A stretch of 35,573 nt of DNA from a virus: IMG/VR virus record IMGVR_UViG_3300043313_001992. One strand, written 5' to 3'. A model generated the notes under the pieces. It was given only the letters and a program-made list of their open reading frames with translations. It searched no databases and was not told where the DNA came from. Position numbers and translations under genes: made by a program. Shown in pieces: positions 3,279-34,699 of this stretch. Numbering within the stretch: the first letter of the stretch is position 1; the number at the start of each line of letters is the position of its first letter.

Positions 3279-4639
3279 GTGGTGGTCTCTTTCTGGTCGG
3301 GGCCGACGGCGTCGGCGTTGGGAAACATGCGCTGCACGAGGGCGATGTCGTCGCCGCCCGGGCGCGGCTCGGGGAAGATCACCCGGTGGCGCTTCTCGAC
3401 CTGGTCGAGCAAGTGCTCGATGTTGGCCAGGTCGGTCGGGCTGTGGCCGGTGCTGGTGCGCAGCGCGGGCATGTCGGCGGGCCAGGCCGTGGCCAGGTCA
3501 GCGCGGGCCTCGGGCGACTTGGCGCCGATCGCATCGATCCGTCCCTGAAGCCAGGCCCGCAGGTCGTCGTGATAGTCGACTACCAGCGGCTTCGTCCCGT
3601 TGGCCCCAGGGGCCCCTGAATCGCCGTCTGCGGGCTTTGGGGCTTCGGGGGCGGTGGTCGCCGCCTTCTGGGCCTCGACGACCGCCAGCGATGCCTCGAG
3701 GACCGTGACCAGCTCGGCGTCAGGTGTGGCCGGGCGGAACCGGTCCATCTGGCCGGGCTCGTGCTCCATGGCGACGGTCCGTTTGCGCCACTCGTTGACC
3801 CAGATGCCGTGCTCGAGGGCGTCCCACCCAGCGGCGATGTCCACCAGGAACAGCTCGCAGGTGCCCGACCCGGCAGGCAGCCAGATGACCAGGGCGTTGG
3901 TCAGGTCGAAGTTGGGTGCGGGCTCGCGCTCGTCCTCGGATCCGTCGGTGGCCGGGCCTTGGCGGTAGAGGTCACGGCCGTTGGCATAGATCGCCAGCTG
4001 CGTGGCGATCGAGTGCCAGCTGAACGACAGGTCGGCCCCGGTCTTGAGGTCGGCGATCAGGGGCTGGTCGAAGCCCGGCACGACGGCGCCCCGGTCGAAC
4101 GTCCCGGCGATCCGTTTGTCGTCGAGTACGACGGTGCGCTCGATCATGCCGGGCAGGAACGTGACGCCCGCCGCCGCCAGCGTCTTGGTGTAGGCGCTCA
4201 AGTCGGCCTCGGTGGCTGCCGAGATGTAGTTGAGCGTGCGGCCCTCGTCGACCATTGCGGTCAGCTCGTGCAGCGCCGTGCCCTGCTCGGCCCGGTCGTT
4301 GGCGCCGCCGACGGCGGCGGCCTCGGCCACCAGGCGCTTGCACTCCCGCTTGGCTTCGTCGCCGCCGTACCACGGAGACCCGTCGTGGCGGGCCAGCAGC
4401 GCCTCCCACTGGGCGTACAGGCCGGGACGCAGGAGCGTGCCGGTGATGGCCATGGTCGCCATCCATGGTGGTATCCCGTAGCCCTCGTCCAGCCAGCCCG
4501 CCGCCGTGGTCGCCCTCGTGTAGCCGACGGGCTTGTCGCCGCCGGGCGGCAGGATCAGGTACCGGCCCCACTGGTCCCGGCGCCACTTGGTGTCGGCGGC
4601 AACGGGGAAGGCGCCGAGCGGGATGCTCGTGGTGGTCAT
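3275..4639 (-). CDS. PD-(D/E)XK (RecB/Cas4-like) exonuclease
   Basis: LHELTAMVDEG ... FDRGAVV ... IADLKTGADL ... QLAIYANG matches the D..D/ExK..Q.xxY nuclease pattern. I chose the ATG at 4639 (MTTTSIPLG) because it forms an ATGA overlap with the upstream stop. The longest ORF would start at 4741. Confidence 0.75.
   Translation of the reverse strand: MTTTSIPLGAFPVAADTKWRRDQWGRYLILPPGGDKPVGYTRATTAAGWLDEGYGIPPWMATMAITGTLLRPGLYAQWEALLARHDGSPWYGGDEAKRECKRLVAEAAAVGGANDRAEQGTALHELTAMVDEGRTLNYISAATEADLSAYTKTLAAAGVTFLPGMIERTVVLDDKRIAGTFDRGAVVPGFDQPLIADLKTGADLSFSWHSIATQLAIYANGRDLYRQGPATDGSEDEREPAPNFDLTNALVIWLPAGSGTCELFLVDIAAGWDALEHGIWVNEWRKRTVAMEHEPGQMDRFRPATPDAELVTVLEASLAVVEAQKAATTAPEAPKPADGDSGAPGANGTKPLVVDYHDDLRAWLQGRIDAIGAKSPEARADLATAWPADMPALRTSTGHSPTDLANIEHLLDQVEKRHRVIFPEPRPGGDDIALVQRMFPNADAVGPDQKETTT
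3570..3585. promoter_or_regulatory. intragenic near-copy TGATAGTCGACTACCA
   Basis: One mismatch in the right arm. Lies inside the exonuclease CDS and may be fortuitous. Confidence 0.3.
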
Positions 4640-5070
4640 CGGGCCGTGACCTCCATGTCCCGGTGCAGCGTCCACCGGCACCCGCACCGGGCCTTGTGGC
4701 CATGCGTGCAGGCGTGCCCGTCGCGTGTCGACTTGCGCCACCCGTGGATCACGAGCGTCCAGCCCGCCGCCGCCAGGGCGACAAACGCCGGAGCGTGCTC
4801 GGCGTCGGTCATCTTGCGCAGGTGGGCGGCGACGTTGGATGCGCTCGTGGTCTGGACGCCCATCGTCTCGCTGCCGCGCAGGGCGACGAGATCGACGAGT
4901 CCGAACAGGTCCCGGCGCACGCCGCCGCCCGGCGCGCCGTTGGGCACCCAGCGTTCGCAGATGTCCACGGTCCAGCCGCCCTGGCGCAGGTGCGCCAGCG
5001 ACAGCTGCGTGGGGGTCGTCATATCGTCCTCCAGGAAGTCGGCGAGCACGTCGGTCAACAGGTCAGCCAT
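4636..5070 (-). CDS. small PD-(D/E)XK-fold nuclease, Holliday-junction-resolvase-like
   Basis: 144 aa starting at the ATG at 5070, which is preceded by GAAAGGA 8 nt upstream. E..(RRDLFGLVDLVAL)..VQTTS resembles archaeal-type resolvase/restriction-fold cores. A Cys/His cluster lies at the C-terminus. Confidence 0.55.
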   Translation of the reverse strand: MADLLTDVLADFLEDDMTTPTQLSLAHLRQGGWTVDICERWVPNGAPGGGVRRDLFGLVDLVALRGSETMGVQTTSASNVAAHLRKMTDAEHAPAFVALAAAGWTLVIHGWRKSTRDGHACTHGHKARCGCRWTLHRDMEVTAR

Positions 5071-5192
5071 GGGCGGCGTCCTTTCAGTGGTGGTGGTTGC
5101 CAACGTTCCGGGGTGCGCGGCCACGTAGGCCGCCCCGCTGAGGTAGGTGACGCCGCCCCGGTGCCGCCCGCAGCAACAGCGGACGGGACGGT

Positions 5193-5444
5193 TCACGAGG
5201 CGACGTGGGCGTCGAGGTAGGCGTCGAGATCGCCGGGTCGGAGGCGGGTGCCGCCAGGAATCTGGATCGAGCGGAGCCTGCCGCTGTGGATCATCCGGTA
5301 CACGGTGCGGCGGGACACCTTGAGGTAGGCGGCCGCCTCGTTGACGGTCAGCACCGGGCGCCCGTCGTTGTGCTCGCGGGTGGCCTTGGTGGCCGCACGG
5401 CGCTCGTTGCGGTTGAGCGGAGGTAGCTGTGCGATGCGGGGCAT
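5193..5444 (-). CDS. excisionase-family (MerR-like HTH_17) DNA-binding protein; Cro/Xis-like early regulator
   Basis: 83 aa. LTVNEAAAYLKVSRRTVYRMIHSGRLRSIQIPG is the classic excisionase-type HTH. It is the first gene of the leftward replication operon and is divergent from the XRE gene. Confidence 0.8.
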   Translation of the reverse strand: MPRIAQLPPLNRNERRAATKATREHNDGRPVLTVNEAAAYLKVSRRTVYRMIHSGRLRSIQIPGGTRLRPGDLDAYLDAHVAS

Positions 5445-5663
5445 GGCGTCACCGTTTCACGCGATGTAACTGGTGACAAGGTGGCAATTCGCGTGCCACG
5501 TGGTGCCTGGGCGTGCCCTGAATGTGCGCTATGTGACACGCCGGGTGTTGCCGCACCGCGGTCACCCCGCTACGGTCGATCAGCAACCGGGGCCTTCGTG
5601 CCCCGCTCGACCGTCCGGGGGGTGGTTGCAACGTGTGGCACCTAGTGGCACAGTGGTCGGCAC
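5445..5663. promoter_or_regulatory. divergent switch region with GTGGCA/TGCCAC repeats
   Basis: 219-bp non-coding gap between divergent HTH genes. It contains the perfect inverted repeat GTGGCA-N7-TGCCAC (5481-5499), direct GTGGCA copies at 5635-5640 and 5645-5650, GTGACAC at 5533-5539, and a GTCGATCA half-site at 5575-5582. Confidence 0.6.
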
Positions 5664-6077
5664 ATGGACACCGATGCAGACACCGTCCCGGCGTACATGC
5701 GCCGACGCCGACACCAGCTGCGGCTCTCCCAGGAGAAGGCCGCTGGGGCGGCAGGGATCTCCCGGCGCGTGTGGTCCGAGATCGAGTTGGGTCAGCGCCG
5801 GGGCAGCGACGAATCGCTGGCCCGCATCGAGCGGGCGCTCGACGTGCCCGCCGGGTCGCTGATCGCCCTCGGTGCCCCGCCCCCGAAGGACGAGGAACTC
5901 GCCTCGATCCGTCGGGAGCTGGTCAAGATGATCCGGCAGCTCACCACCAGGGGGGAACTGGAGGGGGCGCTGGTCGATGTGTCCAAGCGACGGCTGGCGG
6001 CGTTGCAGGCCCGTATCGAGCAATTCGAGGACACCGCCGATGACCCGTCAACCGAGGATCACCGTCACACCGGTTGA
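5664..6077 (+). CDS. XRE-family (Cro/CI-type) HTH transcriptional regulator, candidate immunity repressor
   Basis: 137 aa. RRRRHQLRLSQEKAAGAAGISRRVWSEIELGQR is a typical HTH_3 motif, followed by a C-terminal coiled-coil-like region. Confidence 0.85.
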   Translation: MDTDADTVPAYMRRRRHQLRLSQEKAAGAAGISRRVWSEIELGQRRGSDESLARIERALDVPAGSLIALGAPPPKDEELASIRRELVKMIRQLTTRGELEGALVDVSKRRLAALQARIEQFEDTADDPSTEDHRHTG

Positions 6078-6186: not shown

Positions 6187-6202
6187 TGATAGCCGACTAT
6201 CA
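6187..6202. promoter_or_regulatory. boundary palindrome TGATAGCCGACTATCA
   Basis: Perfect 6-bp arms with a 4-bp spacer. Lies in the 152-nt gap after the XRE gene, 27 nt before the ATG at 6230. Confidence 0.7.
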
Positions 6203-6229: not shown

Positions 6230-6514
6230 ATGGATGACGAGGACGTGTACGTGTTATCGGAGGACGGCGTCGAGCAGGCCCACGGCCTGATCGTAGACCT
6301 GTGGGTGGTCACCCTCGACCAGGGCAACGGTGAACGCATGGCCGCTTTCGACGCCGTCGCTCCCGACGGGTCCCAGGTGCCGTTCCTGTTGGTGACGTCC
6401 GAGCGCGAGGTGCTGGAGCGGATCGACTTCGAGGACATGGCCCGGCGGGAACAGGCAACCGTTCGGTTGCGTCACTTCCGGGCGTGCCACGACCAGGGCG
6501 AGTTCAAGCCGTGA
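6230..6514 (+). CDS. hypothetical protein
   Basis: 94 aa with high GC3. ACGGAGG lies 8 nt upstream of the ATG. Confidence 0.7.
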   Translation: MDDEDVYVLSEDGVEQAHGLIVDLWVVTLDQGNGERMAAFDAVAPDGSQVPFLLVTSEREVLERIDFEDMARREQATVRLRHFRACHDQGEFKP

Positions 6515-6531
6515 CCTACGAGGAGGAAGCC

Positions 6532-6891
6532 ATGGAATCCGAAGCCGCATCGAAACCGCAGGTGTTCGTCGCCGCCGCATGGGAGGGCAACCCCATGGAG
6601 TACGCCCACGGGCTCGTGAAGGCGGCCCGCTCGTTGCGGGCCATCGCCGACATCGTGCCCGTGCTGCCCGACATGCGCCTCGTGCCCGACGAGCCGGGGT
6701 TCGACCGGGTCGGTTGGGAGCGGGACCTGATCGCCCGGTCGGACGCCGTCGTGGTCATCGGCGGGCGGGACGTGCGCGACGACGTCGCCGGGGCCGAGGG
6801 CGTCGACCGGTGGCTGGCCGACGCCGAGGATTTCGGGGTGCTGGTGTTCGACGGGCCGGGGCCGCTGGTCGACTGGGTGATGACCCGGTGA
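6532..6891 (+). CDS. hypothetical protein (weak resemblance to nucleoside 2-deoxyribosyltransferase-like DUF4406 fold)
   Basis: 119 aa from the ATG at 6532, preceded by GAGGAGGAAG. VFVAAAW...SDAVVVIGG suggests a flavodoxin/Rossmann-like pattern. The functional guess is weak. Confidence 0.7.
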   Translation: MESEAASKPQVFVAAAWEGNPMEYAHGLVKAARSLRAIADIVPVLPDMRLVPDEPGFDRVGWERDLIARSDAVVVIGGRDVRDDVAGAEGVDRWLADAEDFGVLVFDGPGPLVDWVMTR

Positions 6892-7067
6892 CCGTCGACC
6901 ACGTTGCCTTGGAGGACGCCGTGCGCCGCCTGCTGGAGATCGACGAGCGGCGGGTGAGCATCGTCCGCTTCACCGGTCTGGACATCGCCGACGGCGTGCG
7001 CCTCACCCAGCCGATCATGGAGGACTACACCGCCGTGATCGCCGAGCTGCGGGAGCTGGTCGGGTGA
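6888..7067 (+). CDS. hypothetical protein
   Basis: 59 aa. GTG at 6888 forms a GTGA overlap with the preceding stop. GC3 is high. Confidence 0.5.
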   Translation: MTVDHVALEDAVRRLLEIDERRVSIVRFTGLDIADGVRLTQPIMEDYTAVIAELRELVG

Positions 7068-7540
7068 CCGGCACCAACCGGAAGGCTCACGTCGAGATCA
7101 CCGAGGACGACCCGCTCTTCCCGGTGACCGACCGGGTGAATTGGCCGTGGCCCCGTCATGTCCCCCGGGACTCGCGGGTGCTCCTCGCCCGCATCGCCTG
7201 GGACGTGCGCGAGCACGGCGACGTGGAGGGCCTCGACGCCGCCGCCGCCCTGCGTCGGCGGTTGCTGGCCCGTGGCGTGGAGGACCCCCGCAGGGCGATC
7301 CCGGCGGCTATCCGTAGCGCGGCCCGGTTCGACTTCGTGACGCTAGAAGGTCGATCCGACTCGTCCCGCCTCGGTGCGATCCGAACGACGTCGGCCACCC
7401 TGCCGCCGAATCCCTGGGTGCTGGAACGCCCGCCCGTCGTCGAGCCCGCCCCGGTGCTGCGGTCGGTGTCCGAGCCCGCCCCGGCGACCGAGGCGCCCCT
7501 GGAGCTACCGCAGGGCCGGGTGGTCGGGGCTGACCCGTGA
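7064..7540 (+). CDS. hypothetical protein
   Basis: 158 aa with a GTGA overlap at 7064-7067. Confidence 0.6.
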   Translation: MTGTNRKAHVEITEDDPLFPVTDRVNWPWPRHVPRDSRVLLARIAWDVREHGDVEGLDAAAALRRRLLARGVEDPRRAIPAAIRSAARFDFVTLEGRSDSSRLGAIRTTSATLPPNPWVLERPPVVEPAPVLRSVSEPAPATEAPLELPQGRVVGADP

Positions 7541-7559
7541 GCAACGGTTGCTGGCGATC

Positions 7560-7874
7560 ATGGACATGGCCGGGGCGGTCCTGATCGACGACCTCACGAC
7601 CGCCCCGGCCGCCCCCACCGACGAGGCGCTGGAGCGGCTAGCCGAGGCCCTCGCCGACAACGCCCGGTTGCGCAACGACCTGGAGGCCGAGCGCCGCCGT
7701 CGTCGTGACGCCGAGGGCGCCGCCGAGTCGGGGGCGAAGGCGTTGCGGGCCGAACGCAAACGGGCGCAGCTCGTGCAGGCGAACCTGGACGCCCTCGTGG
7801 CGGGCATCGCCAAGGGACCGGCACCACGGCCCAACGAGATCGCCCGCCTGATGCAGCAGCGGCCCGTCGGATGA
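7560..7874 (+). CDS. hypothetical coiled-coil protein
   Basis: 104 aa from the ATG at 7560. TTG at 7548 and ATG at 7566 are alternatives and no clear SD is present. Charged heptad-like region: RLRNDLEAERRRRRDAEGAAE. Confidence 0.5.
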   Translation: MDMAGAVLIDDLTTAPAAPTDEALERLAEALADNARLRNDLEAERRRRRDAEGAAESGAKALRAERKRAQLVQANLDALVAGIAKGPAPRPNEIARLMQQRPVG

Positions 7875-8194
7875 AGAGGGAACCGGCCCTGCCCCGTCGA
7901 CCTCGGGCGCCGTTCGGTCACCGCTACTGGGGGCCGTGCTGGGGGGTCCGCAAGTTGCCCGACGGGCGCGAGCTGGTGCTCCTGCCGTTGATCGGGCCGG
8001 TCACCCAGCTATCGGTGAGCTACGCCCGCGACGGCTTCTACGCCGACACCTGGCATTACGACCGCTTGGCCTGGGCGTGGGACGCCTTGTGCCGGTGGGA
8101 CGGGACGGGCGAACCGGAGCGCTGGTTCCGCCATCCGGCTACGGGGCGTCGGCGGCCGGGGGGCGACCCGGTCGCCGAATACGTGCAGCCGTGA
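7871..8194 (+). CDS. hypothetical protein
   Basis: 107 aa with an ATGA overlap at 7871-7874. Its TGA stop is the first arm of the palindromic motif at 8192-8206. Confidence 0.6.
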   Translation: MKREPALPRRPRAPFGHRYWGPCWGVRKLPDGRELVLLPLIGPVTQLSVSYARDGFYADTWHYDRLAWAWDALCRWDGTGEPERWFRHPATGRRRPGGDPVAEYVQP

Positions 8195-8206
8195 TAGGCG
8201 ACTATC
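8192..8206. promoter_or_regulatory. boundary palindrome TGATAGGCGACTATC
   Basis: Its TGA is the stop of 7871-8194. The int TAG stop (8202-8204, minus strand) lies in the other arm. Confidence 0.7.
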
Positions 8207-9347
8207 CGCCGAGGTAGCGCTCGATGTCCGGGGTCGTCACGTCGGCCACCGGGTGACCGTACGTGTGGATGATCTCGGCGGTGGTGGCGTGGCCCATGAG
8301 CTTGGCGAGGACCTCGTACGGCATGCCGTTGTGGCGGGCCACCGAGGCGAACGTGTGGCGGTAGCCGTTGGGCGTCACGTGCCCGACCCGTAGCGCCAGC
8401 GCCAGGTCCCGGGCGTAGACCCGCACGGCGTCGAAGCTCAGCCAGCCGTCGCCGTGCGGGCCGGGGCACACGAAGTCGCCCGTGGCGTGGCGCTGGAGGG
8501 CGGGCAACGCCAGGCGCAGGTCGGTGGCCAGCGGGACCGTCCGGTGGGCGTAGGCGTGACGGTGGTCGGTCTTGAGCACCGTCGAGTAGGTGCCCCGGTT
8601 GGCGGTGCGCCCCCGCTTGATCGTGCCCTCGACCCGTAGCGTCCCGGCGGCCAGGTCGACGTAGCGCCACTGGAGGCCCATGGCCTCGCCGGGTCGGAGC
8701 CCGCACAACATCATCAGCAGGAACAACCCGGCCAGCGGCCCGCCGTCGGCAACCAGATAGTTGCGCGCCAGCGTGAACCCGGCCAGGTCGTGGAACGTGC
8801 GCCGCACGGCGACCGGGGTGCTCGGTGGGACCCGGGCCGACCGCAGCTCGTCGAGCCGGTCCGGCGTGACGCACTTCCGGCGCCCGGCGTAGTCGAGGAT
8901 CATGCCCCAGTGGGTGCGGACCTTGGTCATCGAGGCCGGGCCGAGGCGCCGCCCGAGGGCGGTCCACATATCCTCGACGTCGCCGACGGTGGCGGTCATC
9001 AGGTCGGCGTCGATGCCGAGGCCCAGCATGATGTTGCGGGCCGACCACCGGTAGGCGATGTTCGTTTGCTCGGCGTGGCCCTGCTCCTGGAACTCCAGCC
9101 ACCCGGCCACCACGGCGGCGAGCGCGCTATCGCCCGCCAGGCTGGCCCGTACGTCGAGGTCCCGGCGGCGGCGGTCCCGGCGTATCTCGCACTCCTCGAA
9201 CGTGTCGCCCCGCTCGATGTGCGCCTGCCCGCCCCAACGGTGGCGCAACGTGACCTTGCCCCGGGCCTCGTCCCAGCCGAATGACCCCTGGCCCCGGGCG
9301 AGCTTGGGCAAGGTCGCCGGTCGCCGATGTGTGCCCATGTGTCCCAT
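8202..9347 (-). CDS. int: tyrosine integrase
   Basis: 381 aa. C-terminal catalytic pattern: LRPGEA...HRHAYAHRTVPL...NGYRHTFAS...LMGHATTAEIIHTYGH (R...HxxR...Y). The N-terminus resembles a SAM/arm-type domain. Confidence 0.9.
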   Translation of the reverse strand: MGHMGTHRRPATLPKLARGQGSFGWDEARGKVTLRHRWGGQAHIERGDTFEECEIRRDRRRRDLDVRASLAGDSALAAVVAGWLEFQEQGHAEQTNIAYRWSARNIMLGLGIDADLMTATVGDVEDMWTALGRRLGPASMTKVRTHWGMILDYAGRRKCVTPDRLDELRSARVPPSTPVAVRRTFHDLAGFTLARNYLVADGGPLAGLFLLMMLCGLRPGEAMGLQWRYVDLAAGTLRVEGTIKRGRTANRGTYSTVLKTDHRHAYAHRTVPLATDLRLALPALQRHATGDFVCPGPHGDGWLSFDAVRVYARDLALALRVGHVTPNGYRHTFASVARHNGMPYEVLAKLMGHATTAEIIHTYGHPVADVTTPDIERYLGG

Positions 9348-9599
9348 ACCCCCGCTCGATGTGTGCCCCGGTACAACACCGGGGTCACATCATGGCACAC
9401 CGAGGCCCTACCTGGCACACCCGTCATAGGCGCTGACCTGCGGGTTTACCTATATGCCCTGGTCAGCGAGCCGGGAATAGGGCCGTCAAATATCCTCTTC
9501 GTGGATTAGATACGTGTCCGTTGACCTGCGCTTATGGCTGTTTGGTACACCCGGCCGGTACAAGATAGGCGACTATCAGGGGCGCACTAGGCTCGCCCC
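9348..9599. other. candidate attP region
   Basis: Non-coding stretch next to int, with visibly lower GC around 9440-9545. Direct repeats: TGG(C/T)ACACC at 9392, 9412 and 9543; CCGGTACAA at 9367 and 9555; TGACCTGCG at 9433 and 9521. Hairpin CCCCGGT-acaac-ACCGGGG at 9365-9383. The core cannot be defined without a host sequence. Confidence 0.5.
9563..9578. promoter_or_regulatory. boundary palindrome AGATAGGCGACTATCA
   Basis: Same 14-mer (GATAGGCGACTATC) as at 8193-8206 and in the same orientation. Lies 22 nt upstream of the ATG at 9600. Confidence 0.7.
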
Positions 9600-13901: not shown

Positions 13902-13917
13902 TGATAGACGTCGATCA
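13902..13917. promoter_or_regulatory. boundary motif TGATAGACGTCGATCA
   Basis: Lies between the tape measure and Dit genes. The TMP stop (13915-13917) is in the right arm. Confidence 0.7.
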
Positions 13918-23860: not shown

Positions 23861-23865
23861 CGGGA

Positions 23866-23913
23866 AGGGTCGGATGGCCTATGTTGCCCCGGTTAATACG
23901 GGCCGATACTTGG
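23866..23913 (+). promoter_or_regulatory. promoter-like repeat, copy 4 (leaderless geometry)
   Basis: AGGGTCGGATGGCCTATGTTGCCCCGGTTAATACGGGCCGATACTTGG. The ATG at 23917 lies 7 nt after GATACT. Confidence 0.6.
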
Positions 23914-23916
23914 TAC

Positions 23917-27373: not shown

Positions 27374-28599
27374 GGCGTGCCCTTGGTGAAGTCGTGCGCC
27401 GCACCGGTGGCCTCGTGGATCGGCTCGAAGCCGGTCGCCTCCTGCCAGCGACGAGCGATCACGTCGCAGTAGCGGGGGTCGAGCTCGATGAGCCGGGCGG
27501 TGCGGCCGGTCTGGTGGGCGGCGATCAGGGTGGTGCCCGACCCGGCGAAAGGGTCGAGCACGACGGCGCCGGGCTTCGTGTGGTTGGCCACGGCCCGCTC
27601 GACGAGCGCGACGGGCTTCATCGTTGGGTGGTCCTTGGAGGCGGCGGGCCGGGCGAACTCCCAGACCGAATCCTGGGTGCGGTCCGGCACCGGGTGGTGC
27701 GGGCCGCCCGGTGCCCAGCCGAAGAACAGCGCTTCGTGGCGGTAGTGGTAGTCGCTGTGGCCCATCACCAGGGAGTTCTTCACCCACGCCAGGGTCTGGC
27801 GCCAGATCCCCAGGTCGTCGAGCGCCTCAACGAAGCAACGCATGGCCGGACCTAGGGGCGCCGTCACGAACCAGACGGCGCCGGGGTGGCAGCAGGCCAG
27901 GGTCGCCAGGAAGGCGGCGCTCAGCAGCGCCTTGGTCTGGTCGGCGTCGAGGGCGTCGTTGTCGATGGTCAGGGCGTCGGCGGTCTTGCCGATGTAGTCC
28001 ACGCCGTAGGGCGGGTCGGTCCACACCAGGTCGGCCAGGCGGTCGCCCATCACCCGCTCCACGTCGGTGGTGACGGTGGCGTCACCGCAGAGCAGGCGGT
28101 GCGGCCCCAGGCGCCACACGTCGCCCTTGGTCGTGAAGGCCGGGGGTGCGGGCGGGACGTGGTCGGGGTCCAACAGCGGCGACGGTGGGGGCGTCAGGCG
28201 GGCCAGCAGGTCGTCGAGGTCGGTGGCGGCGAACGAGGCGGCGGCGAGCAGGGTGGGGTCGGCTTCGTTGACCTCGGTGAGCAGGTCCAGTAGCGCCTGC
28301 TCGTCGTAGGTGCCCAGCTCGCTGGTCCGGTTGTCGGCCAGAGCGAACGCCTTGGCCGTCGCTTCGTCGGCGTCGGTGCGGACCACGGCCAGCTCGGTCC
28401 AGCCCAGCTGTCGTGCTGCCAGGAAGGTGTGGTTGCCCGCGATGATCGTGCCGTCGAGGCGGGCCACGATGGGCTTGAGCTGGCCGAAGCGTTCGAGGCT
28501 GCGGGCCACCGCCTCGACGTCGCCCCGTCGGGGGTTGCCCGGTAGTAGGTGCAGGTCGTCGAGCGGGGTGGCGAGCGGTAGGAGGTTGTCGGCGATCAC
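27370..28599 (-). CDS. ParB-like nuclease domain / DNA N6- or N4-methyltransferase fusion (copy 2)
   Basis: 409 aa from the GTG at 28599 (GTGA overlap with the HNH stop). It has the same ParB N-domain, TDPPYG, HPTMKP and VLDPFAGSGTT, but its central region differs from copy 1. Confidence 0.85.
   Translation of the reverse strand: MIADNLLPLATPLDDLHLLPGNPRRGDVEAVARSLERFGQLKPIVARLDGTIIAGNHTFLAARQLGWTELAVVRTDADEATAKAFALADNRTSELGTYDEQALLDLLTEVNEADPTLLAAASFAATDLDDLLARLTPPPSPLLDPDHVPPAPPAFTTKGDVWRLGPHRLLCGDATVTTDVERVMGDRLADLVWTDPPYGVDYIGKTADALTIDNDALDADQTKALLSAAFLATLACCHPGAVWFVTAPLGPAMRCFVEALDDLGIWRQTLAWVKNSLVMGHSDYHYRHEALFFGWAPGGPHHPVPDRTQDSVWEFARPAASKDHPTMKPVALVERAVANHTKPGAVVLDPFAGSGTTLIAAHQTGRTARLIELDPRYCDVIARRWQEATGFEPIHEATGAAHDFTKGTP
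28183..28599. repeat. 417-bp near-identical direct repeat, unit B (5' ParB-domain part of methyltransferase 2)
   Basis: See unit A. Confidence 0.85.
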
Positions 28600-28871
28600 C
28601 AGGACCTCGATGGTGGTGGGGGTGTGCGCACCGTGGGGTGGCGCAGCTCGGCGGCGATCATCTTGCCCTGGTGTTTCTGGCAGGGCAGGCATGCCGGGCG
28701 CAACACGCAACACCCCGACCCGGGGACGTGGTTGTGGAGCGCCAGCGGTGGGTGATGGTCCGCGCTGTTGGCCTTGGTCCCGTCGCACACGATGCGCAAC
28801 ACGCACGGCAGGCCCAGCGCCAGGAGGCGGGCACGTGCTCGCTGGTACGCCCGGTCGTAGGGGTCGGCCAC
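28596..28871 (-). CDS. HNH endonuclease (packaging-associated)
   Basis: 91 aa. CVLRIVCDG...ADHHPPLALHNH...LRPACLPCQKHQG fits the Cys4 + H-N-H pattern. It is the first gene of the terminase operon. Confidence 0.8.
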   Translation of the reverse strand: MADPYDRAYQRARARLLALGLPCVLRIVCDGTKANSADHHPPLALHNHVPGSGCCVLRPACLPCQKHQGKMIAAELRHPTVRTPPPPSRSW

Positions 28872-28888
28872 GCCGCCGAGGGTAGCGG

Positions 28889-28904
28889 TGATAGACGTCG
28901 ATCA
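28889..28904. promoter_or_regulatory. boundary motif TGATAGACGTCGATCA
   Basis: Lies 18 nt upstream of the HNH start and abuts the cos-like block. Confidence 0.7.
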
Positions 28905-28907
28905 CGG

Positions 28908-28927
28908 GCGCAACCGATCGGTTGCGC
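28908..28927. repeat. perfect 20-bp palindrome GCGCAACCGATCGGTTGCGC
   Basis: Self-complementary over all 20 nt. A second copy lies at 29149-29168. Confidence 0.9.
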
Positions 28928-29148
28928 GTGAGAAAGTTTGGGTGATGTCCTCAACTTTTCGACTTGAGGATTTCCCGCAGAAACTTTTGCGGCGGCCCCG
29001 GTTTTTTTCTGTGGGAACGGGGGCGGCACTCACCCGCCCGGCTATCTACCGCCTGGGGGCCGAAAAAGAAATCCGGCCGAAATCCTCAAGTCCGAAACTT
29101 GAGGGAAACGCCGAGAAAAAGAATCCCGGGAAAGTCCTCAAGTCCGAC

Positions 29149-29168
29149 GCGCAACCGATCGGTTGCGG
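29149..29168. repeat. second copy of the palindrome (GCGCAACCGATCGGTTGCGG, 19/20)
   Basis: The 18-nt core CGCAACCGATCGGTTGCG (29150-29167) is perfectly self-complementary. Confidence 0.9.
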
Positions 29169-29195
29169 TCGGCGCTTGTGGCAGGATGCCGGGTC

Positions 29196-29450
29196 ATGTG
29201 GAGGAAACGACGACCGCTACCACCCGCCCCGGTCAATGTGAGGCTTCAGGACGCCGAGGGGCACGTCTACCCGCTGGAATTGGCCTACATCGGCCGTCGG
29301 CGGGGGCTTGACCGGTGGCGGGCGACGACCACGGTCACGCTCGACTGGCACCAGCCGTTCGAGCTACGGGCCGACGAGCTACCGGGGGCGACGGCCATCG
29401 AGCTGGAGGTGCGGCGCGAGCCCGACGACGGGTCACGCAACCCGGCGTAG
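29196..29450 (+). CDS. hypothetical protein
   Basis: 84 aa from the ATG at 29196 (AGGA 9 nt upstream). GC3 is fairly high. It is convergent with the endolysin and overlaps its 3' end by 18 nt. Confidence 0.5.
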   Translation: MWRKRRPLPPAPVNVRLQDAEGHVYPLELAYIGRRRGLDRWRATTTVTLDWHQPFELRADELPGATAIELEVRREPDDGSRNPA

Positions 29451-30632
29451 ACGCCCGTCCGAGGCGCCCTGGCGGGCGGATACACCGTCACGGCGCCGGA
29501 TCGTCCGAATCACGGCGGCCCCCTGGGCGGTGATGAAGGCGGCGACCAGCCCGGCGATGATGACGACCACGCCGACCACGGCGGCGATCTGCCACTGCGT
29601 GAGGTCGAACCAGTCGGCGGCGAGCGCCAGCTCAAGCCCGAGCCACAACAACGCCACCAGAACGACCGCAAACGCCCCCGTAGCGGCCATAGACGCCGTT
29701 GTGGCCGTCGCCCCGCCACCCGTGGGGTCCTCGACCTCGTGGTGGTAGCGCTCGGCCATGAACACGTCGTCGACCAGCCACGTGTCCTCGGGGCCGATGC
29801 CCAGCCAGAAACACTCCTGAAGGACGGCGTCCCAGGTCTTGAGGTGGCGGGCGGCGCCCGAACCCTCGACCAACGACCACCAGGCCTCGTCAGCGACCCC
29901 GATACGGGCCTGCGCCCACGCCGAACCGGCCTTCGTGCGCACAACGCTCCGTGTCGGCATGTCGTCCTCCTCCTCGGGCGGCACGCCGCCCAGCAGCTCC
30001 GACCAGAACGCCTCGCGCACGGTGTTCTGGTCGCACGTGTTTTCGGTGATGCCCGGGATGCGCGCCGTCGAGCTGAACTGCCACGCCGACCAGCCGGTGT
30101 CGGCCCAGGCGGCCGGAACGGGCGGGTTGAACGCCGGGGGGCTCGTAATCGGGGCGTTTGACCCGTAATTTGCCACCCAAAACGGCCTGAGGCCGATCGG
30201 ATGCGCCGGGTCGAACCCCACGCCGAAGTAGGCGCCCGAGTAGACGATGGCCGGTGCCCGTGCGCCGAGCCGGACGACCTCGGCGCAGAAGGCCTCGCCG
30301 AAGGCGTCGAGCTGGGCGGGGCTCAGACCGTGGGCGTTGTGCTCGATGTCCAAGACCGACCCGAGCTCGCCTCTGCCGAGGCCCAGGTCGACGGCGTAGC
30401 GGGCCTGGCTCTCAGCGTCGCCCACCGCGGGGCTGGCGAAGAAGTAGCCGCCGTACAGGCCACCGGCGGCGAGGCAGTTGGCCTCGTTCTCGAGCCACCG
30501 GCTGTCCCGGTAATAGCCGCCATCTGCGCCGCCAACCTTGATCCAGGCGCCCTGGACCCCTGCGGCCAGCACTTCGGGCCAGTTGATCCAGCCCTGCCAC
30601 CGCGAGACGTCGATCGTCCACACGTCGGCCAT
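29433..30632 (-). CDS. GH25-type lysozyme (muramidase) endolysin with C-terminal double transmembrane segment
   Basis: 399 aa. The N-terminus (IDVSRWQGWINWPEV...GAWIKVG...YGGYFF...LDIE...WQFSS) fits the GH25 pattern. The last 85 aa contain two hydrophobic helices (GAFAVVLVALLWLGLELALAA and IAAVVGVVVIIAGLVAAFITAQGAAVI) followed by an Arg-rich tail. Confidence 0.8.
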   Translation of the reverse strand: MADVWTIDVSRWQGWINWPEVLAAGVQGAWIKVGGADGGYYRDSRWLENEANCLAAGGLYGGYFFASPAVGDAESQARYAVDLGLGRGELGSVLDIEHNAHGLSPAQLDAFGEAFCAEVVRLGARAPAIVYSGAYFGVGFDPAHPIGLRPFWVANYGSNAPITSPPAFNPPVPAAWADTGWSAWQFSSTARIPGITENTCDQNTVREAFWSELLGGVPPEEEDDMPTRSVVRTKAGSAWAQARIGVADEAWWSLVEGSGAARHLKTWDAVLQECFWLGIGPEDTWLVDDVFMAERYHHEVEDPTGGGATATTASMAATGAFAVVLVALLWLGLELALAADWFDLTQWQIAAVVGVVVIIAGLVAAFITAQGAAVIRTIRRRDGVSARQGASDGRLRRVA

Positions 30633-30871: not shown

Positions 30872-31033
30872 TCAGCCCAGATAGGCGCGGATAGCGGCGA
30901 CCACCGTCTCCTGAAGGCTCGAATCGTCGGTTGCTGCCCGGATGCGCAGCTCCCGGTGCAGGTCGGCGTCGATGGCGATGTTGATCCGCTTGACGGCGGG
31001 GGCGGACGGCGGGGGCGGAGTGCGTTTCGGCAT
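30872..31033 (-). CDS. ribbon-helix-helix (CopG/Arc-like) DNA-binding protein
   Basis: 53 aa. KRINIAIDADLHRELRIRAATDDSSLQETVVAAIRAYLG has a beta-strand/helix/helix pattern. It forms the 3' end of a 605-aa shadow ORF. TATTGT lies 6 nt upstream of the ATG, which is leaderless geometry. Confidence 0.7.
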   Translation of the reverse strand: MPKRTPPPPSAPAVKRINIAIDADLHRELRIRAATDDSSLQETVVAAIRAYLG

Positions 31034-31195
31034 GGCGCCACAATATCGCACATCGCGACGTTGTGACACCCTTGAGCGATTTGTGTCACGAGGAATCTTT
31101 GATAGAAGTGTTAGGTAACTATCATCGCTGGTCGATACTATGGCTGTGCCAGCGCCATCGGGGCGAGGGCCGTCACCACCAGGAGCCAACCAGCC
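31034..31195. promoter_or_regulatory. divergent control region (RHH gene vs rightward AAA+/VWA operon)
   Basis: TTGTGACAC (31061-31069) and TTGTGTCAC (31081-31089) are mutually inverted and 20 bp apart. The region also contains the split motif TGATAG-N13-CTATCA (31100-31124), AAGTGTTAGG (31106-31115), and GTCGATACTAT (31131-31141), which shares CGATACT with the island promoters. Confidence 0.6.
31100..31124. promoter_or_regulatory. split version TGATAG-N13-CTATCA
   Basis: Same arms as the 16-bp motif, but with AAGTGTTAGGTAA inserted between them. Lies in the RHH/rightward-operon control region. Confidence 0.5.
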
Positions 31196-31909
31196 ATGAG
31201 CACGACCCCCACCACCACGCCCTCGGACGTCATCGAGGCCATGCGCTCGATCCAGACCGAGTCCGACCGCTGGCGCTTGGCCGAGGCGCTCGCCGCCCGC
31301 ATCCCGTCGGGCGACAAGGGGCTCGACGAGATCGTCGACGCCGCCGCCGCCGCCGGGGTCCTCGGCAAGCTGTCCAAGACCACCCTGCGCCTCTACCGCG
31401 ACGCCGCCAACCGCTGGCCCGCCGACAAGCGGGTCGCCAACGTGTCCTTCTCGGCCCACCGCGAGGCCATGGTGCTCGACAACATCAACGAGGCGGCCCG
31501 CATGCTCGGCTCGCTGGTCAAGTCCAGCGGCGGCGCCGACAAGGTCACGGTCGCCTCGGTGCGCCGGGCGGTCGCCGTCAAGCGGGGCACGGTGCCCGCA
31601 GAGAAGGCCACCGCCAACGGGTCGGCGGCGACCACCAAGGCCCCGGCGCTCGACGTGCTCACCGACCTGCAGGCCGGGGCACCGCAGCTGATCGCCGCCA
31701 TCCCCAACGCCACGGCGCCCACCGAGCTCGACCGGCTCCACGCCGGGCTGTCCAAGGCGCTGGCCCACGTCGAGCGCCTCCAGGCCAAGGCCGCCCAGGC
31801 CGCCCGCAAGAAGGCCGCCGCACCCAAGCGCACGGCGCCCAAGGCCGCCGCCCGCAAGGCCGCCGCCACGCCGCGGCGCAAGGCCGTCGGCGACCTGCGC
31901 GGCGAGTGA
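31196..31909 (+). CDS. hypothetical DNA-binding-like protein with Ala/Lys/Pro-rich histone-H1-like C-terminal tail
   Basis: 237 aa. AGGAG lies upstream of the ATG. The C-terminus (KAAQAARKKAAAPKRTAPKAAARKAAATPRRKA) resembles the basic tails of actinobacterial HU/Hlp proteins. Confidence 0.7.
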   Translation: MSTTPTTTPSDVIEAMRSIQTESDRWRLAEALAARIPSGDKGLDEIVDAAAAAGVLGKLSKTTLRLYRDAANRWPADKRVANVSFSAHREAMVLDNINEAARMLGSLVKSSGGADKVTVASVRRAVAVKRGTVPAEKATANGSAATTKAPALDVLTDLQAGAPQLIAAIPNATAPTELDRLHAGLSKALAHVERLQAKAAQAARKKAAAPKRTAPKAAARKAAATPRRKAVGDLRGE

Positions 31910-31939: not shown

Positions 31940-32824
31940 ATGAACGTTGCCACCACCACACCCAGCTTTGACCTGGCGACCGTGCCCGAGGCCGACCGCG
32001 GCCGGGTCGCCGCCCTGATCCCCAGCCCCCGCATCGCCGAGGCCTACGTGCATCGGTCCTTCAACGGCCGGACCGACTTCGACCTGCTCGACTACGCCGT
32101 CGCCGAGATGGAAAACGTCATCCTGGCGGGGCCGACCGGGTCGGCCAAGACCACCTTCTTCCGGGCCTACGCCGCCGCCCGGGGGCTGCCGTTCTGCGTA
32201 GTCGAGTGCTCGGGCGCCATCGACCTCGGCATGGTGCTGGGCAAGACCACCATCGACCCCGACGGCGGCGTCCGGTGGATCGACGGCGAGATGACGCTGG
32301 TGGCCCGCTACGGCGGCGTCGTGCTGATCGACGAGATCAACATGGCGCACCCCCGCATCACGGCCGGGTTCCACCAGTTGCTGGCGGTCACCCGGCGCAT
32401 GAGCATCCCCGAGGCGGGCGAGACGATCATCGCCGGGCGGGGCGGCACCGGGGCGGCGCAACCGACGCTGTTCGGGGCGGCGTACAACCCCCGCTACCAG
32501 GGCACGGTGCGGCTGAGCGAGGCCCTGCAGAACCGCTACGCCATCCCGCTGAAGTGGGGATACGAGCGGGACGTCGAGGCGCAGCTGGTGACCTCGGAGC
32601 GGCTGCTCGACATGGCCGACAACATCCGGGCGCTCGACGAGATCCGCACGCCGCTGTCCACCAACGCCCTCATGGAATTCGAGCGCCACGTCGACGGGCT
32701 GGGCATGGACACCGCCCGCATGCTCCTGGTCAACCGCTTCGCCCCCGAGGAACAGGCGCCGGTCGCCCGGGCGCTCGAGGCCAACGCCGATGCCATCCAG
32801 GCCGAACTGGACGCAGCCGAATGA
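31940..32824 (+). CDS. MoxR-class AAA+ ATPase (AAA_5; CbbQ/NorQ/CobS-like)
   Basis: 294 aa. GGAGGAA lies before the ATG. Walker A is GPTGSAKTT and Walker B is VVLIDEINMAHP. Single AAA module of CbbQ/NorQ size. Confidence 0.85.
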   Translation: MNVATTTPSFDLATVPEADRGRVAALIPSPRIAEAYVHRSFNGRTDFDLLDYAVAEMENVILAGPTGSAKTTFFRAYAAARGLPFCVVECSGAIDLGMVLGKTTIDPDGGVRWIDGEMTLVARYGGVVLIDEINMAHPRITAGFHQLLAVTRRMSIPEAGETIIAGRGGTGAAQPTLFGAAYNPRYQGTVRLSEALQNRYAIPLKWGYERDVEAQLVTSERLLDMADNIRALDEIRTPLSTNALMEFERHVDGLGMDTARMLLVNRFAPEEQAPVARALEANADAIQAELDAAE

Positions 32825-32833
32825 GCGAGCATT

Positions 32834-32849
32834 TGATAGTCAGCTATCA
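32834..32849. promoter_or_regulatory. boundary palindrome TGATAGTCAGCTATCA
   Basis: Lies in the 99-nt gap between the AAA+ and VWA genes. It is followed by AGTGTTAGG and GTCGATAAG, as in the 31100 region. Confidence 0.7.
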
Positions 32850-32923
32850 AGTGTTAGGACTAAGATGTCGATAAGTGCAGTGGCTCGCCCCACCGGGGGC
32901 GGGCGAGACCCAGGAGGGCCAGA

Positions 32924-34699
32924 ATGGATCCAGCGAGGCGGGGCACGACCGAGGTCAAGCTGCTCCACACTCAGCTCACCCCCCAGCAGCTGGTGCGGCT
33001 GTCTCGCCTTGGCCGCGAGCTACGCCTGACCGACCAGATCCTGTCGGATGACCTGGACACCGTCAGCATCGTGGACGGCGGCCCCGCCCCGGCGTGGACG
33101 TCGCTGGCGGGCGACCACGTCAGCTACGCCCTCGACCGCATGCCGCTGCCCGAAACGAAGCTCGACGTGGCGGTCTGGCTGGGCACCAACGCCCACGAGT
33201 TGGGCCACGTGCTCTTCAGCCCCCGGAGCGGCTCGGCGCTCATGACCCGGCTGGCCGAGGCCGAGCGGGTCCACCTGCGGGGCATCGCCGACCTGCACAA
33301 CATCGCCGAGGACCAGCGCCAGGAACGGCTGATCCTGGCCCGCTTCGCTCCCTGGCGCGCCTACCTGACCGCGGCCCTCGGGCACCACATCGTCGTGGGC
33401 GACGCCCACGCCTGGTTGCTGCTGGCGGGCCGCACGTGGCTACCTGACGCCGTACGGGCGCAGGCCCGGCGCCTCTTCGCCGACACCTACGACGAGCCTT
33501 CGGCCATCCGGGTGGCCGAGTTGATCGGCGACTATCAGCGGCTCGTCGATCCTGGCGACACCGAGGCCCCCGAAGCGTTCGAGATCCTCGAAGCGCTCCA
33601 CGACCTGTTCGCCTCGGTGCCGCCGCTGCGCTCACGTTGCCAACCGCTGGCCGAGGGCGAGCCTGACACCAGTGAGGCGGGCGGCCAGGCGCCACCCACC
33701 GCCGACGAGGCCGAGCCCGACGAGGGCGACGACGGCGCCGAGACGGGCGAGGGCGCCGAGGGCGACGCTCAGGACGGCCAGGAGGGCGCTGGGGCGGGCG
33801 AGACGGGTGCCAGCGAGTCGGGCGAGGGCGGCCAAGGCGAGGGCGCCCAGGAGGCGCCCAGCCGGGCGGCGCAGATCACCGCGGCGGCCGCCGAGCAGCT
33901 GGACGCCGCCGACGTCGCCGAGGACATCGCCGCGGTGCTCAACGCCATCGGAGGCGGCCGCGGCTCGGACCAGCCCGAGGGCGCCGACCGCCGGGGCACC
34001 CACGTCCTGGCCACCGACGCCGCCCGGCGCCTCCACCACGAGGTCGGCGACGCCCTGCTCGACCTGAAGGATGCCAACGAGCCCGGCTGGGTGCGCCGGG
34101 TCGACTCTGGGCGGTTGAACGTACGGCGCCTGGCCAACCCGCAGGTCAACGCCGACGAGCTCTTCGACCGCTTCGAACCCGGCCAGCTCGAGGCCAACGA
34201 GCTCGAGCTCGTGCTGCTGCTCGACGTCAGCGGGTCGATGAACGTCCAGCTGTGGGATCTGGCCGAGGTGACCTGGGCGATCCGCCACGCCGTCGACGAC
34301 CTCGAGGGCACCGCGACGGTCATCACCTGGGACGACGGGCCGCACCGCATCCTGGCGGCGCCCGGCGACCGGCCCGACGAGCGCATGTTCGTGCCAGGCT
34401 GCGGCGGCGGCACGAGGCCCACCAGCGCCTTGACCGAGGCCTACCGGTTGCTGTCGGGCTCGACCTGCCACAACCGGCTGATGGTGATCCTCACCGACGG
34501 GGCCTGGCACGGCATGTCGTACCAGTACGACCCGCTGATGGAGGCCATGAACGACGCCGGGATCGTGACGGTGTGCGGCCTGCTCGGCCCCAACGCCGGA
34601 ACCGACATCCACGGCTGCAGCTACGGCGAGCGCCTCGGCTCGCTGTCGGACCTCGCCCGGTTGTTCGGCCGGGTGGCAGCCGCCCGTATCGGAGCGTGA
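32924..34699 (+). CDS. von Willebrand factor A (VWA) domain protein with N-terminal HExxH motif and acidic linker (CobT/NorD/CbbO-like partner)
   Basis: 591 aa. AGGAGGG lies before the ATG. HELGH is at 33194-33208. A D/E/G-rich linker spans about 33650-33850. The MIDAS-type LLLDVSGSM starts at 34223, followed by VILTDGAWHG. Confidence 0.8.
   Translation: MDPARRGTTEVKLLHTQLTPQQLVRLSRLGRELRLTDQILSDDLDTVSIVDGGPAPAWTSLAGDHVSYALDRMPLPETKLDVAVWLGTNAHELGHVLFSPRSGSALMTRLAEAERVHLRGIADLHNIAEDQRQERLILARFAPWRAYLTAALGHHIVVGDAHAWLLLAGRTWLPDAVRAQARRLFADTYDEPSAIRVAELIGDYQRLVDPGDTEAPEAFEILEALHDLFASVPPLRSRCQPLAEGEPDTSEAGGQAPPTADEAEPDEGDDGAETGEGAEGDAQDGQEGAGAGETGASESGEGGQGEGAQEAPSRAAQITAAAAEQLDAADVAEDIAAVLNAIGGGRGSDQPEGADRRGTHVLATDAARRLHHEVGDALLDLKDANEPGWVRRVDSGRLNVRRLANPQVNADELFDRFEPGQLEANELELVLLLDVSGSMNVQLWDLAEVTWAIRHAVDDLEGTATVITWDDGPHRILAAPGDRPDERMFVPGCGGGTRPTSALTEAYRLLSGSTCHNRLMVILTDGAWHGMSYQYDPLMEAMNDAGIVTVCGLLGPNAGTDIHGCSYGERLGSLSDLARLFGRVAAARIGA
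33522..33537. promoter_or_regulatory. intragenic copy TGATCGGCGACTATCA
   Basis: Uses the TGATCG arm variant seen in the GACGTC subfamily. Lies inside the VWA CDS. Confidence 0.35.

Follow-up and report, generated by a model that had tools for sequence, protein, structure and literature searches.

The 35,573-nt virus record IMGVR_UViG_3300043313_001992 in IMG/VR (the window, by which we mean the whole stretch) carries a 16-bp palindrome, TGAT(A/C)G-N4-C(T/G)ATCA, that recurs at its gene junctions. The sites are far more numerous than in shuffled sequence, are non-randomly placed, are linked to −10 hexamers, and are conserved in relatives, where they co-occur with gene 31196-31909, whose product we call gp31196. 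In our judgment the chances are somewhat better than even that the palindromes are operators of one phage-encoded dimeric DNA-binding protein, most likely gp31196, and that they make up a genome-wide transcription-control network. The window has a G+C content of 71% and represents a temperate siphovirus, with a compact genome of 35.5 kb, from an uncultured actinophage lineage.

All copies of the palindrome listed in a first-pass annotation of the window were present. Eight sites match the consensus exactly (6187, 13902, 22235, 23809, 25617, 28889, 32834, and 33522), compared with none in 100 dinucleotide-preserving shuffles of the window. With up to one mismatch there were 13 (adding 3570, 8192, 9563, 19932, and 31109), against a shuffle mean of 0.08 and maximum of 1. 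A symmetrized weight matrix then separated 14 sites scoring at least 20.6 bits from all other sequence, which scored 13.4 bits or less, and added a site at 17873 (GGATAGACGTCTACCA). The split form TGATAG-N13-CTATCA was also found, overlapping site 31109, and the half-sites are dyad symmetric and about 10 bp apart, a geometry that predicts a protein-binding site, as had been proposed. Once genes had been called from codon-position G+C content and annotated with Pfam scans, the junctions assigned to the sites proved essentially right. Under this gene map only 2,691 nt (7.6%) of the window is non-coding, and 11 of the 14 sites fall wholly or partly within it (binomial P = 1.4e-10); the other three (3570, 17873, and 33522) are intragenic. 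Stop codons often lie physically inside the sites, as first described: five sites supply six of them (8192 on both strands; 13902, 19932, 23809, and 25617). The next start may be as close as 12 nt or as far as about 155 nt, and some copies sit at convergent gene ends or before a terminator. The sites, with their surroundings, are as follows.

3570-3585, TGATAGTCGACTACCA: intragenic near-copy in gene 3275-4639 (minus strand); 23.2 bits; rare codons GTA and TAT
6187-6202, TGATAGCCGACTATCA: between XRE and the rightward operon 6230-8194, whose ATG at 6230 lies 27 nt on
8192-8207, TGATAGGCGACTATCC: convergent junction of gene 7871-8194 (plus strand), which ends in TGA 8192-8194, and the integrase gene (minus strand), whose TAG stop is CTA 8202-8204
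9563-9578, AGATAGGCGACTATCA: 9 nt upstream of −10 TAGGCT (9588-9593), followed after 6 nt by ATG 9600
13902-13917, TGATAGACGTCGATCA: last 3 nt are the tape-measure gene stop; on the minus strand it adjoins the GGAGG ribosome-binding site of Dit gene 13026-13889, and a TACCGT hexamer (13917-13922, minus strand), the seventh linked to a site, overlaps its upstream edge
17873-17888, GGATAGACGTCTACCA: in the last codons of gene 17851-18408 (minus strand), 25 nt upstream of the GTG of 17524-17847; 20.6 bits; rare codons TTG, GTA, and TAT
19932-19947, AGATAGACGGCTATCA: last 3 nt are the protease stop; on the minus strand, 3 nt upstream of −10 TACGCT (19923-19928), which heads a conserved leader of ~140 nt reaching to the capsid start (GTG 19778)
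22235-22250, TGATAGACGTCGATCA: on the minus strand, 13 nt upstream of −10 TACCCT (22216-22221), followed after 8 nt by portal ATG 22207; left edge of an island missing from relative L001
23809-23824, TGATAGACGTCGATCA: its TGA is the stop of gene 23521-23811 (plus strand), and an intrinsic terminator (23825-23850 plus a T run) lies directly 3′
25617-25632, TGATAGACGTCGATCA: last 3 nt are the stop of the terS-like gene (minus strand); 66 nt upstream of the TerL start at 25550
28889-28904, TGATAGACGTCGATCA: on the minus strand, 4 nt upstream of −10 TACCCT (28879-28884), followed after 7 nt by the HNH-like GTG 28871
31100-31124, TGATAGAAGTGTTAGGTAACTATCA: putative composite operator of two overlapping sites, 11 nt upstream of −10 TACTAT (31136-31141) of the gp31196 operon and divergent from the RHH gene
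32834-32849, TGATAGTCAGCTATCA: between the AAA_5 and VWA genes, 11 nt upstream of −10 TAAGAT (32861-32866)
33522-33537, TGATCGGCGACTATCA: intragenic, at an offset of 598 nt in the VWA gene; rare codons TTG and TAT

Sequence identity among the five TGATAGACGTCGATCA copies is limited to the 16-mer, and their flanks differ. This asymmetric variant (TGATAG/CGATCA) keeps the same plus-strand orientation beside both minus- and plus-strand genes. Rare codons encode all three intragenic copies (TAT makes up 10% of Tyr codons, GTA 3% of those for Val, and TTG 8% of those for Leu), and the VWA gene of relative L039 has an intragenic copy at 595 nt, matching the one in the window; together these observations argue that selection acts on the DNA sequence. 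Around the circular genome the sites are spaced more evenly than random (coefficient of variation 0.50, P = 0.006, or 0.013 when gene junctions were sampled). Our searches of the literature returned no earlier report of the motif string.

A sigma-70 consensus scan was uninformative in DNA of this composition, and we used a census of the actinobacterial −10 pattern TANNNT instead. The pattern occurs only 40 times on both strands (15 in non-coding DNA), so the census gives a near-complete promoter map. Reading toward the next gene, 6 of the 11 intergenic sites are followed by a TANNNT after 3 to 13 nt (P about 3e-7 relative to the intergenic rate), with gaps of 3 (19932), 4 (28889), 9 (9563), 11 (31109), 11 (32834), and 13 nt (22235). 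For three of these six promoters, those of the HNH-like gene, the portal gene, and gene 9600, the start codon follows 6 to 8 nt after the hexamer, which indicates leaderless mRNAs; with the RHH gene (31033), at least four genes look leaderless (28871, 22207, and 9600 being the others). No −35 hexamer was found at any of the six promoters, and the motif fills that region. MerR-type spacer activation, considered for the gaps of 3 and 4 nt, was rejected because no −35 lies at the required distance. The census placed no −10 near sites 6187, 8192, 23809, and 25617. No site lies at the XRE promoter (TTGCCG-17-TACGGT at 5571), and the weight-matrix scan found none in the early-left operon except one intragenic copy.

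Conservation of the motif, which the first-pass annotation had proposed as a test, was evident in two sets of relatives (numbered with L below). Capsid-based retrieval from IMG/VR gave 12 loci with 66 to 85% identity, 8 of which carry the motif. It lies ~155 to 200 nt upstream of the capsid start, within or close to the protease-capsid gap, in L003, L004, L006, L007, L008, and L012, as in the window, and ~290 nt upstream in L002, outside the aligned segment. In L015, the same arrangement of site, −10, and start occurs at the portal gene and at an HNH-like gene. The motif is missing from all 18.8 kb of L001, which is the closest relative (85% capsid identity), and a de novo search for palindromes and repeats found no substitute. 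L001 retains TACGCT at the capsid promoter (P_capsid) and TACCGT, 7 nt, and ATG at the HNH promoter (P_HNH); because these promoters exist without the motif, the motif is a regulatory add-on and not a core promoter element. L001 also lacks the island 22227-24200 and has other genes at the position of the RHH/gp31196 module.

The second set comprised 34 loci fetched through gp31196 homologs, totaling 244 kb. They hold 118 family sites, compared with 6.4 in shuffles, and 29 of the 34 have at least one. A site occurs upstream of the gp31196 homolog in nearly all relatives; on contigs of 1 to 2 kb it lies ~100 to 700 nt upstream (mostly 100 to 400 nt), often with another following. The site between the AAA_5 and VWA genes is syntenic in L018 (8917), L022 (1311), L033 (11645), and L036 (3711). 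Counting the symmetric variants TGACAG/CTGTCA and TGCTAG/CTAGCA, the motif is conserved in dozens of metagenomic relatives. L037 has mostly the symmetric variant TGACAGTTGACTGTCA, with mixed half-sites common there and in L018, while L034, L055, and L058 have the symmetric variant TGCTAGACGTCTAGCA, with palindromes of the TGCTAGAC(G/C)... type. Some relatives show a tandem arrangement: a perfect copy and, 2 nt beyond it, a second, weaker one (…ATAGAGTGCTAT…) overlapping the −10 (TATGAT or TATTAT). Such pairs, with centers 18 bp apart, occur in L033 (9560-9660 and 14750-14850), L032 (2240-2330), and L037 (15440-15500).

The gene that tracks the motif across the lineage is 31196-31909, which was not among the binders suggested earlier (XRE, the HTH proteins 5193-5444 and 22986-23207, and the RHH protein). 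It heads a conserved operon, usually beside a small RHH gene:

30872-31033, minus strand: small RHH gene, divergent from the gp31196 operon
31196-31909, plus strand: gp31196 gene (237 aa), first in the operon
31940-32824, plus strand: AAA_5 (MoxR/CobS-like) ATPase gene, second in the operon
32924-34699, plus strand: gene for a VWA protein with an N-terminal HELGH (HExxH) motif, third in the operon

gp31196, the ATPase, and the VWA protein are common to motif-rich loci with unrelated structural genes (L018, L022, and L032 to L039), and a gp31196 homolog accompanies the motif wherever it is abundant. There are 100 metagenomic homologs of gp31196; the family had no match in Pfam, PHROGs, NCBIfam, or PDB profile searches, and tblastn found none in cultured phages. 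AlphaFold (AF2) gave confident models of it, with a predicted local distance difference test score of 87 for the full length and 90 for residues 1 to 136. They show seven helices in the N-terminal domain, a coiled coil of some length, and a basic tail. At the C terminus is a conserved GDLRGL-type motif, whose G, D, and R recur in at least 90% of 39 homologs; the window protein ends in GDLRGE. The top PDB fold matches of both the full-length and the N-terminal models were Noc/ParB DNA-binding domains, among them the Noc-DNA complex 6y93. Palindromes of 16 bp are what ParB and Noc recognize, so the geometry fits. The ParB N-terminal CTPase domain (PF02195) had no match in gp31196, and in the window it was found only in the two methyltransferase fusions at 26165-28599; a sliding-clamp mechanism is therefore unlikely. 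Half-site variants also appear to follow the protein. TGACAG half-sites occur where the putative recognition helix reads ...LRLYRDTASRWP ('...DTASRWP'; L037, L018, and L063), and TGCTAG half-sites occur only in a gp31196 clade at 35 to 42% identity, a suggestive covariation between half-sites and predicted recognition-helix clades.

From these patterns we infer that a protein occupies the sites, that it is most likely gp31196, and that it represses transcription. The 16-mer, written TGATAGACGTCTATCA, would be the operator DNA of a dimeric phage-encoded protein acting across most of the genome. Bound over the −35 and spacer, this protein would occlude RNA polymerase from P_HNH, P_portal, P_capsid, P_9600, P_31196, and P_VWA, and perhaps from a seventh promoter, at the hexamer next to 13902. 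Occlusion fits the variable gaps to the −10, which share no common helical phase, better than phase-dependent activation does. At cistron junctions and intragenic sites, the bound protein might block read-through, in the way of stoperators and distal KorB sites, or help to hold complexes together. gp31196 would repress its own operon through the composite operator, possibly together with the RHH protein, and the early-left replication operon and the XRE promoter would stand outside the network. A bolder version, which we regard as speculative and rather unlikely, treats the palindrome array as a DNA docking lattice for a hitherto undescribed three-protein machine, with gp31196, ParB/Noc-like and bearing the conserved C-terminal GDLRGL-type peptide, as adaptor for the MoxR/CobS-like AAA+ ATPase and the HExxH VWA protein. 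The ATPase/VWA pair would then remodel or proteolyze DNA-bound gp31196 and switch the genome between silent and active states.

Several observations weigh against gp31196 as the binder and against the operator reading itself. The Noc/ParB match in Foldseek is weak (E values of 0.5 to 1.3, probabilities of 0.72 to 0.96, and TM scores of 0.35 to 0.63), and gp31196 has no sequence-level match to any solved structure or family. The covariation of half-sites with the helix comes from few independent lineages. Co-occurrence with gp31196 is partly circular because most loci were fetched through it, and in this lineage of phages many genes have the motif nearby. A site likewise accompanies the RHH gene; in L034 this gene lies 6 kb from gp31196 with a variant site 19 nt upstream of its start. 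Finally, the association of motif and −10 is weaker in relatives, and in the window five intergenic sites beyond the six have no nearby −10 (at 13902 the hexamer overlaps the edge of the site).

Other proteins could be the binder. Of the four first proposed, only the RHH protein keeps a claim of any size: acting alone or as a specificity partner of gp31196, as KorA does with KorB, it is a possibility to which we give a modest weight well short of even. Its homologs adjoin a site in L022, L032, L033, L037, and L018, the relocated gene of L034 makes a sixth locus with its variant site retained, and L001 has neither motif nor RHH gene at the syntenic place. However, no RHH homolog was detected in the motif-rich L035, L036, L039, and L060, which are partial contigs. 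The RHH gene of the window also has a more natural autoregulatory site of its own, a distinct inverted repeat (GTGACAC-N13-GTGTCAC) over the −35 region of its promoter, and conserved outer hexamers one helical turn apart around a variable center are probably more typical of HTH dimers. The XRE protein is a poorer fit. Palindromic stoperators for an immunity repressor would suit a temperate phage, as this one is counted from its integrase (8202-9311), and the dispersed junction layout recalls Cluster A stoperators (PMC9283540, PMC6550527). Yet no site lies in the divergent region between XRE and HTH_17 (5445-5663), where its own promoter is, and XRE has no homolog in the IMG/VR relatives or in any motif-bearing locus, nor a tblastn match in cultured phages; L033 has the identical motif and XRE-type genes of its own without a tblastn match to it. 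We consider XRE a very improbable binder. The other two HTH candidates likewise fail to follow the motif, HTH_17 being found only in copies of the window phage and the island HTH having a homolog only in the close relative L015. A host factor, such as an actinobacterial global regulator exploited by the lineage, would explain why the half-site is unusually constant across phages with unrelated capsid, portal, and tail modules (L034, L037, and L039 versus the window). However, the symmetric variants differ by phage clade and track the gp31196 clades, and the closest relative is motif-free, both of which favor a phage-encoded partner. We know of no actinobacterial regulator with this consensus and think a host factor quite unlikely.

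The sites could also do something other than repress. That they bind an activator comparable to Mu C, P2 Ogr, or T4 MotA, which would switch on −35-less late and accessory promoters, is improbable though worth stating, since the six motif-linked promoters have no recognizable −35 and the motif occupies its place. Against it stand the variable phase noted above, the same −10-only promoters without the motif in L001, and the five intergenic sites and three intragenic copies with no promoter nearby; −10-only promoters are moreover normal in Actinobacteria. The first-pass annotation had offered module-boundary recombination as its own alternative, here with built-in stop codons in both orientations. 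The six stops, the recurrence of the motif at junctions in phages with different modules, and the island that begins at site 22235 and is absent from L001 are in its favor. But the other edge of the island and its internal breakpoints relative to L015 fall at a promoter-like repeat of ~50 nt or at gene ends, the methyltransferase gene-pair insertion is not flanked by sites, 16 bp of identity is short for homologous exchange, and both the −10 link and the rare-codon intragenic copies are left unexplained. This makes recombination a decidedly weak contender. RNA hairpins at the 3′ ends of cistrons, acting in processing, stability, or translation, are the least credible of these readings. Many copies do overlap stop codons, and copies in L036 and L060 precede tRNA-like RNA elements, but the stem would have only 6 weak pairs, and the five identical copies speak against a hairpin because a mismatch, A.G or C.U, interrupts the stem whichever strand is read. 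In addition, L037 and L018 often have mixed half-sites, and several copies lie upstream of the promoter of the next gene. An intrinsic terminator or REP-like hairpin was rejected on the same A+T-rich, mismatched stem, and the terminator scan matched only the separate hairpin at 23825-23850. An analogy to the P22 Arc/MetJ operators, suggested by a core in relatives (AGACGTCT) that is identical to the metbox, was dropped because positions 7 to 10 vary while the outer hexamers are conserved. Integrase arm sites, cos or pac sites, origin repeats, and methylase targets were rejected because the sites are dispersed and junction specific.

Among known systems, the palindromes of Cluster O mycobacteriophages are closest in form. 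These 17-bp elements (5′-TGTTCGG-N3-CCGAACA) number more than 30 in genomes of ~70 kb, are mostly intergenic with about a third in genes, and have a predicted dimeric binder, with function and binder unassigned since 2015 (Cresawn et al. 2015, PMC4351075). They resemble the sites in the window in being dyad symmetric, genome-wide, mostly intergenic, and orientation-free. They differ in geometry (7-N3-7 versus 6-N4-6, with TGATAG-N4-CTATCA as the consensus here), Cluster O phages are not obviously temperate, and no link to −10 hexamers or stop codons was reported for them. In proposed action, the network resembles the Cluster A stoperators and the KorB regulon. The stoperators, bound by the monomeric immunity repressor of the L5 gp71 family, are asymmetric, transcription-oriented 13-mers; they occupy short intergenic gaps throughout early and late operons, come in addition to an operator at a promoter, and silence the genome by blocking elongation (PMC9283540, PMC6550527). 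The first-pass comparison with stoperators holds for layout, with many copies in short intergenic gaps of several operons, but not for asymmetry, orientation, or monomeric binding. The sites in the window are palindromes with symmetric variants, have no orientation with transcription, lie on promoters in half of cases, and are not tracked by the immunity-type XRE.

The OB sites of KorB number 12. KorB, a ParB-family HTH protein of the IncP plasmid RK2, uses scattered palindromic operators, some at promoters and others distant or intragenic, to repress several operons with a small partner repressor (PMC11790492). The likeness lies in a palindromic site of ~13 to 16 bp; the best fold matches of the gp31196 model, weak as they are, were ParB/Noc DNA-binding domains. 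Unlike KorB, gp31196 has no ParB CTPase domain and no ParA partner, and its operon partners are the AAA_5 ATPase and the VWA protein. As analogies, the Cluster O palindromes and the KorB OB sites are closer to the network in the window than stoperators are. Streptomyces phage phiC31 has conserved inverted repeats (CIRs), 17-bp elements at many places near promoters and terminators that are bound by the c repressor. They give a similar layout in a temperate actinophage, although the sequences are unrelated and the repressor family is different. The start-associated sequences (SAS) of Cluster K, asymmetric 13-bp elements just upstream of ribosome-binding sites, are strictly tied to translation starts, from which they keep a fixed short distance (PMC4351075). 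Sites 13902 and 6187 and several in relatives are SAS-like in lying just upstream of ribosome-binding sites, but the sites in the window are palindromic, tied to stop codons and −10 hexamers, and at variable distance from starts.

Dispersed operator networks are known in actinophages, and their logic is understood in one case only, that of the Cluster A stoperators. The window offers a test system with 14 sites in 35.5 kb, a promoter link, natural half-site variants, a motif-free close relative, and a specific, testable candidate binder, whose uncharacterized family goes with an AAA+/VWA pair of the CobS/CobT-like kind. Should gp31196 prove to be the binder, this would point to a role for the CobS/CobT-like AAA+/VWA pairs of many phages. 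If the docking lattice exists, it would give these common, unexplained pairs a function and represent a new class of genome-wide switch in uncultured actinophages. In addition, the units of −10 plus putative operator, together with leaderless starts, provide a promoter map for an uncultured phage group.

With gene order unchanged, the XRE protein recurs on 22 metagenomic contigs (the longest 35.6 kb), where the right-end genes of the window lie directly upstream of its left-end genes; the window is thus a whole, circularly permuted genome. Megablast of 25 kb of the window against GenBank phages gave no nucleotide match to cultured phages. The only cultured relatives of its capsid are Cluster O mycobacteriophage capsids (26% identity), and two capsid scans of genome contigs gave only two distant matches in metagenome-assembled genomes, both Actinomycetota. 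The remaining mapped genes are as follows.

37-2133, minus strand: PrimPol/AAA_25 replication protein, end of the leftward early operon
3275-4639, minus strand: gene that holds intragenic site 3570
5193-5444, minus strand: HTH_17 protein, head of the leftward early operon, followed by genes without assigned function
5664-6077, plus strand: XRE gene, divergent from the HTH_17 operon
6230-8194, plus strand: small rightward genes downstream of XRE, the last being 7871-8194
8202-9311, minus strand: tyrosine integrase
at 9848, minus strand: collagen-like fiber, at the far end of the tail genes in the leftward late operon
13026-13889, minus strand: Dit gene, with a GGAGG ribosome-binding site
13915-15780, minus strand: tape-measure gene
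17524-17847, minus strand: gene with a GTG start
17851-18408, minus strand: gene whose last codons hold site 17873
18501-19778, minus strand: capsid, GTG start at 19778
19945-20655, minus strand: protease
20927-22207, minus strand: portal, ATG at 22207
22227-24200, plus strand: island of small genes that interrupts the late operon
22986-23207: HTH gene of the island
23521-23811, plus strand: island gene with its stop supplied by site 23809
24201-25550, minus strand: TerL
25630-26154, minus strand: terS-like gene
26165-27373 and 27370-28599, minus strand: two ParB_N-domain/N6_N4 DNA methyltransferase fusions, tandem paralogs
28596-28871, minus strand: HNH-like gene, head of the leftward late operon, GTG at 28871
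29433-30632: GH25 lysin

Within the operon headed by gp31196, the HELGH motif lies near the N terminus of the VWA protein, which may therefore be a metallopeptidase-VWA partner of the AAA_5 ATPase. An AAA/VWA pair of this sort, with 37% identity in the ATPase, also occurs in Gordonia phage GMA6 and its relatives, annotated as 'porphyrin biosynthesis'/CobS. The divergent RHH gene has a leaderless promoter (TATTGT at 31040-31045, followed after 6 nt by ATG) ~50 nt from the composite site, and the inverted repeat in its promoter region (31034-31099) looks like a second operator type.

The small plus-strand genes of the island are headed by a repeat of ~50 to 75 nt (…CCTATGTTGCCCCGGTTAATnnGCGCCGATACTTGGnACATG) present four times (22274-22348, 23214-23288, 23507-23581, and 23867-23941). 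Its first copy reads as a promoter, TTGCCC-17-TACTAT, and the island ORF starts 'MLPRLIRADTWNM' are probably artifacts of the repeat. Compared with L001, the two methyltransferase fusions, whose N-terminal halves are near-identical, form an insertion that separates the HNH-like gene from the terS-like gene. A non-coding block of ~340 nt (28905-29240) that precedes the HNH-like gene and has two copies of a 20-bp palindrome (GCGCAACCGATCGGTTGCGC), GGACTTGAGGA-type repeats, and A/T runs is probably a cos/terminase recognition region; parts of it are kept in L015 and L001. The capsid 5′ leader of ~150 nt (19779-19931, minus strand) is conserved in the syntenic regions of L001 to L012, and its blocks CAGCAGCGGTGAC and GCCGACCCGCCCGATGC are better conserved than the flanking protease 3′ end, so that it may be a structured leader RNA.

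Searches of the window, L036, and L060 with Rfam and ARAGORN gave no RNA matches. Seven relatives (L035, L036, and L058 to L062) contain 28 copies of a tRNA-like element that does not occur in the window (for example, L036 at 1480-1600, 2690-2800, and 3725-3835, and L060 at 7303-7375). It consists of an acceptor-type stem of 6 to 7 bp, a hairpin that varies (often GTTGGTAGCTACCAAC), and a T-arm whose loop reads GGTTCGAYTCC. Every copy is on the gene strand and most are intergenic, in the order of a TGATAG site at the upstream stop, the element, and GGAACTTGGAGGTTCC, a ribosome-binding site that is palindromic. From copy to copy the acceptor and T stems differ by compensatory changes, and the elements may be RNase P/Z-type 'punctuation' of phage operons.

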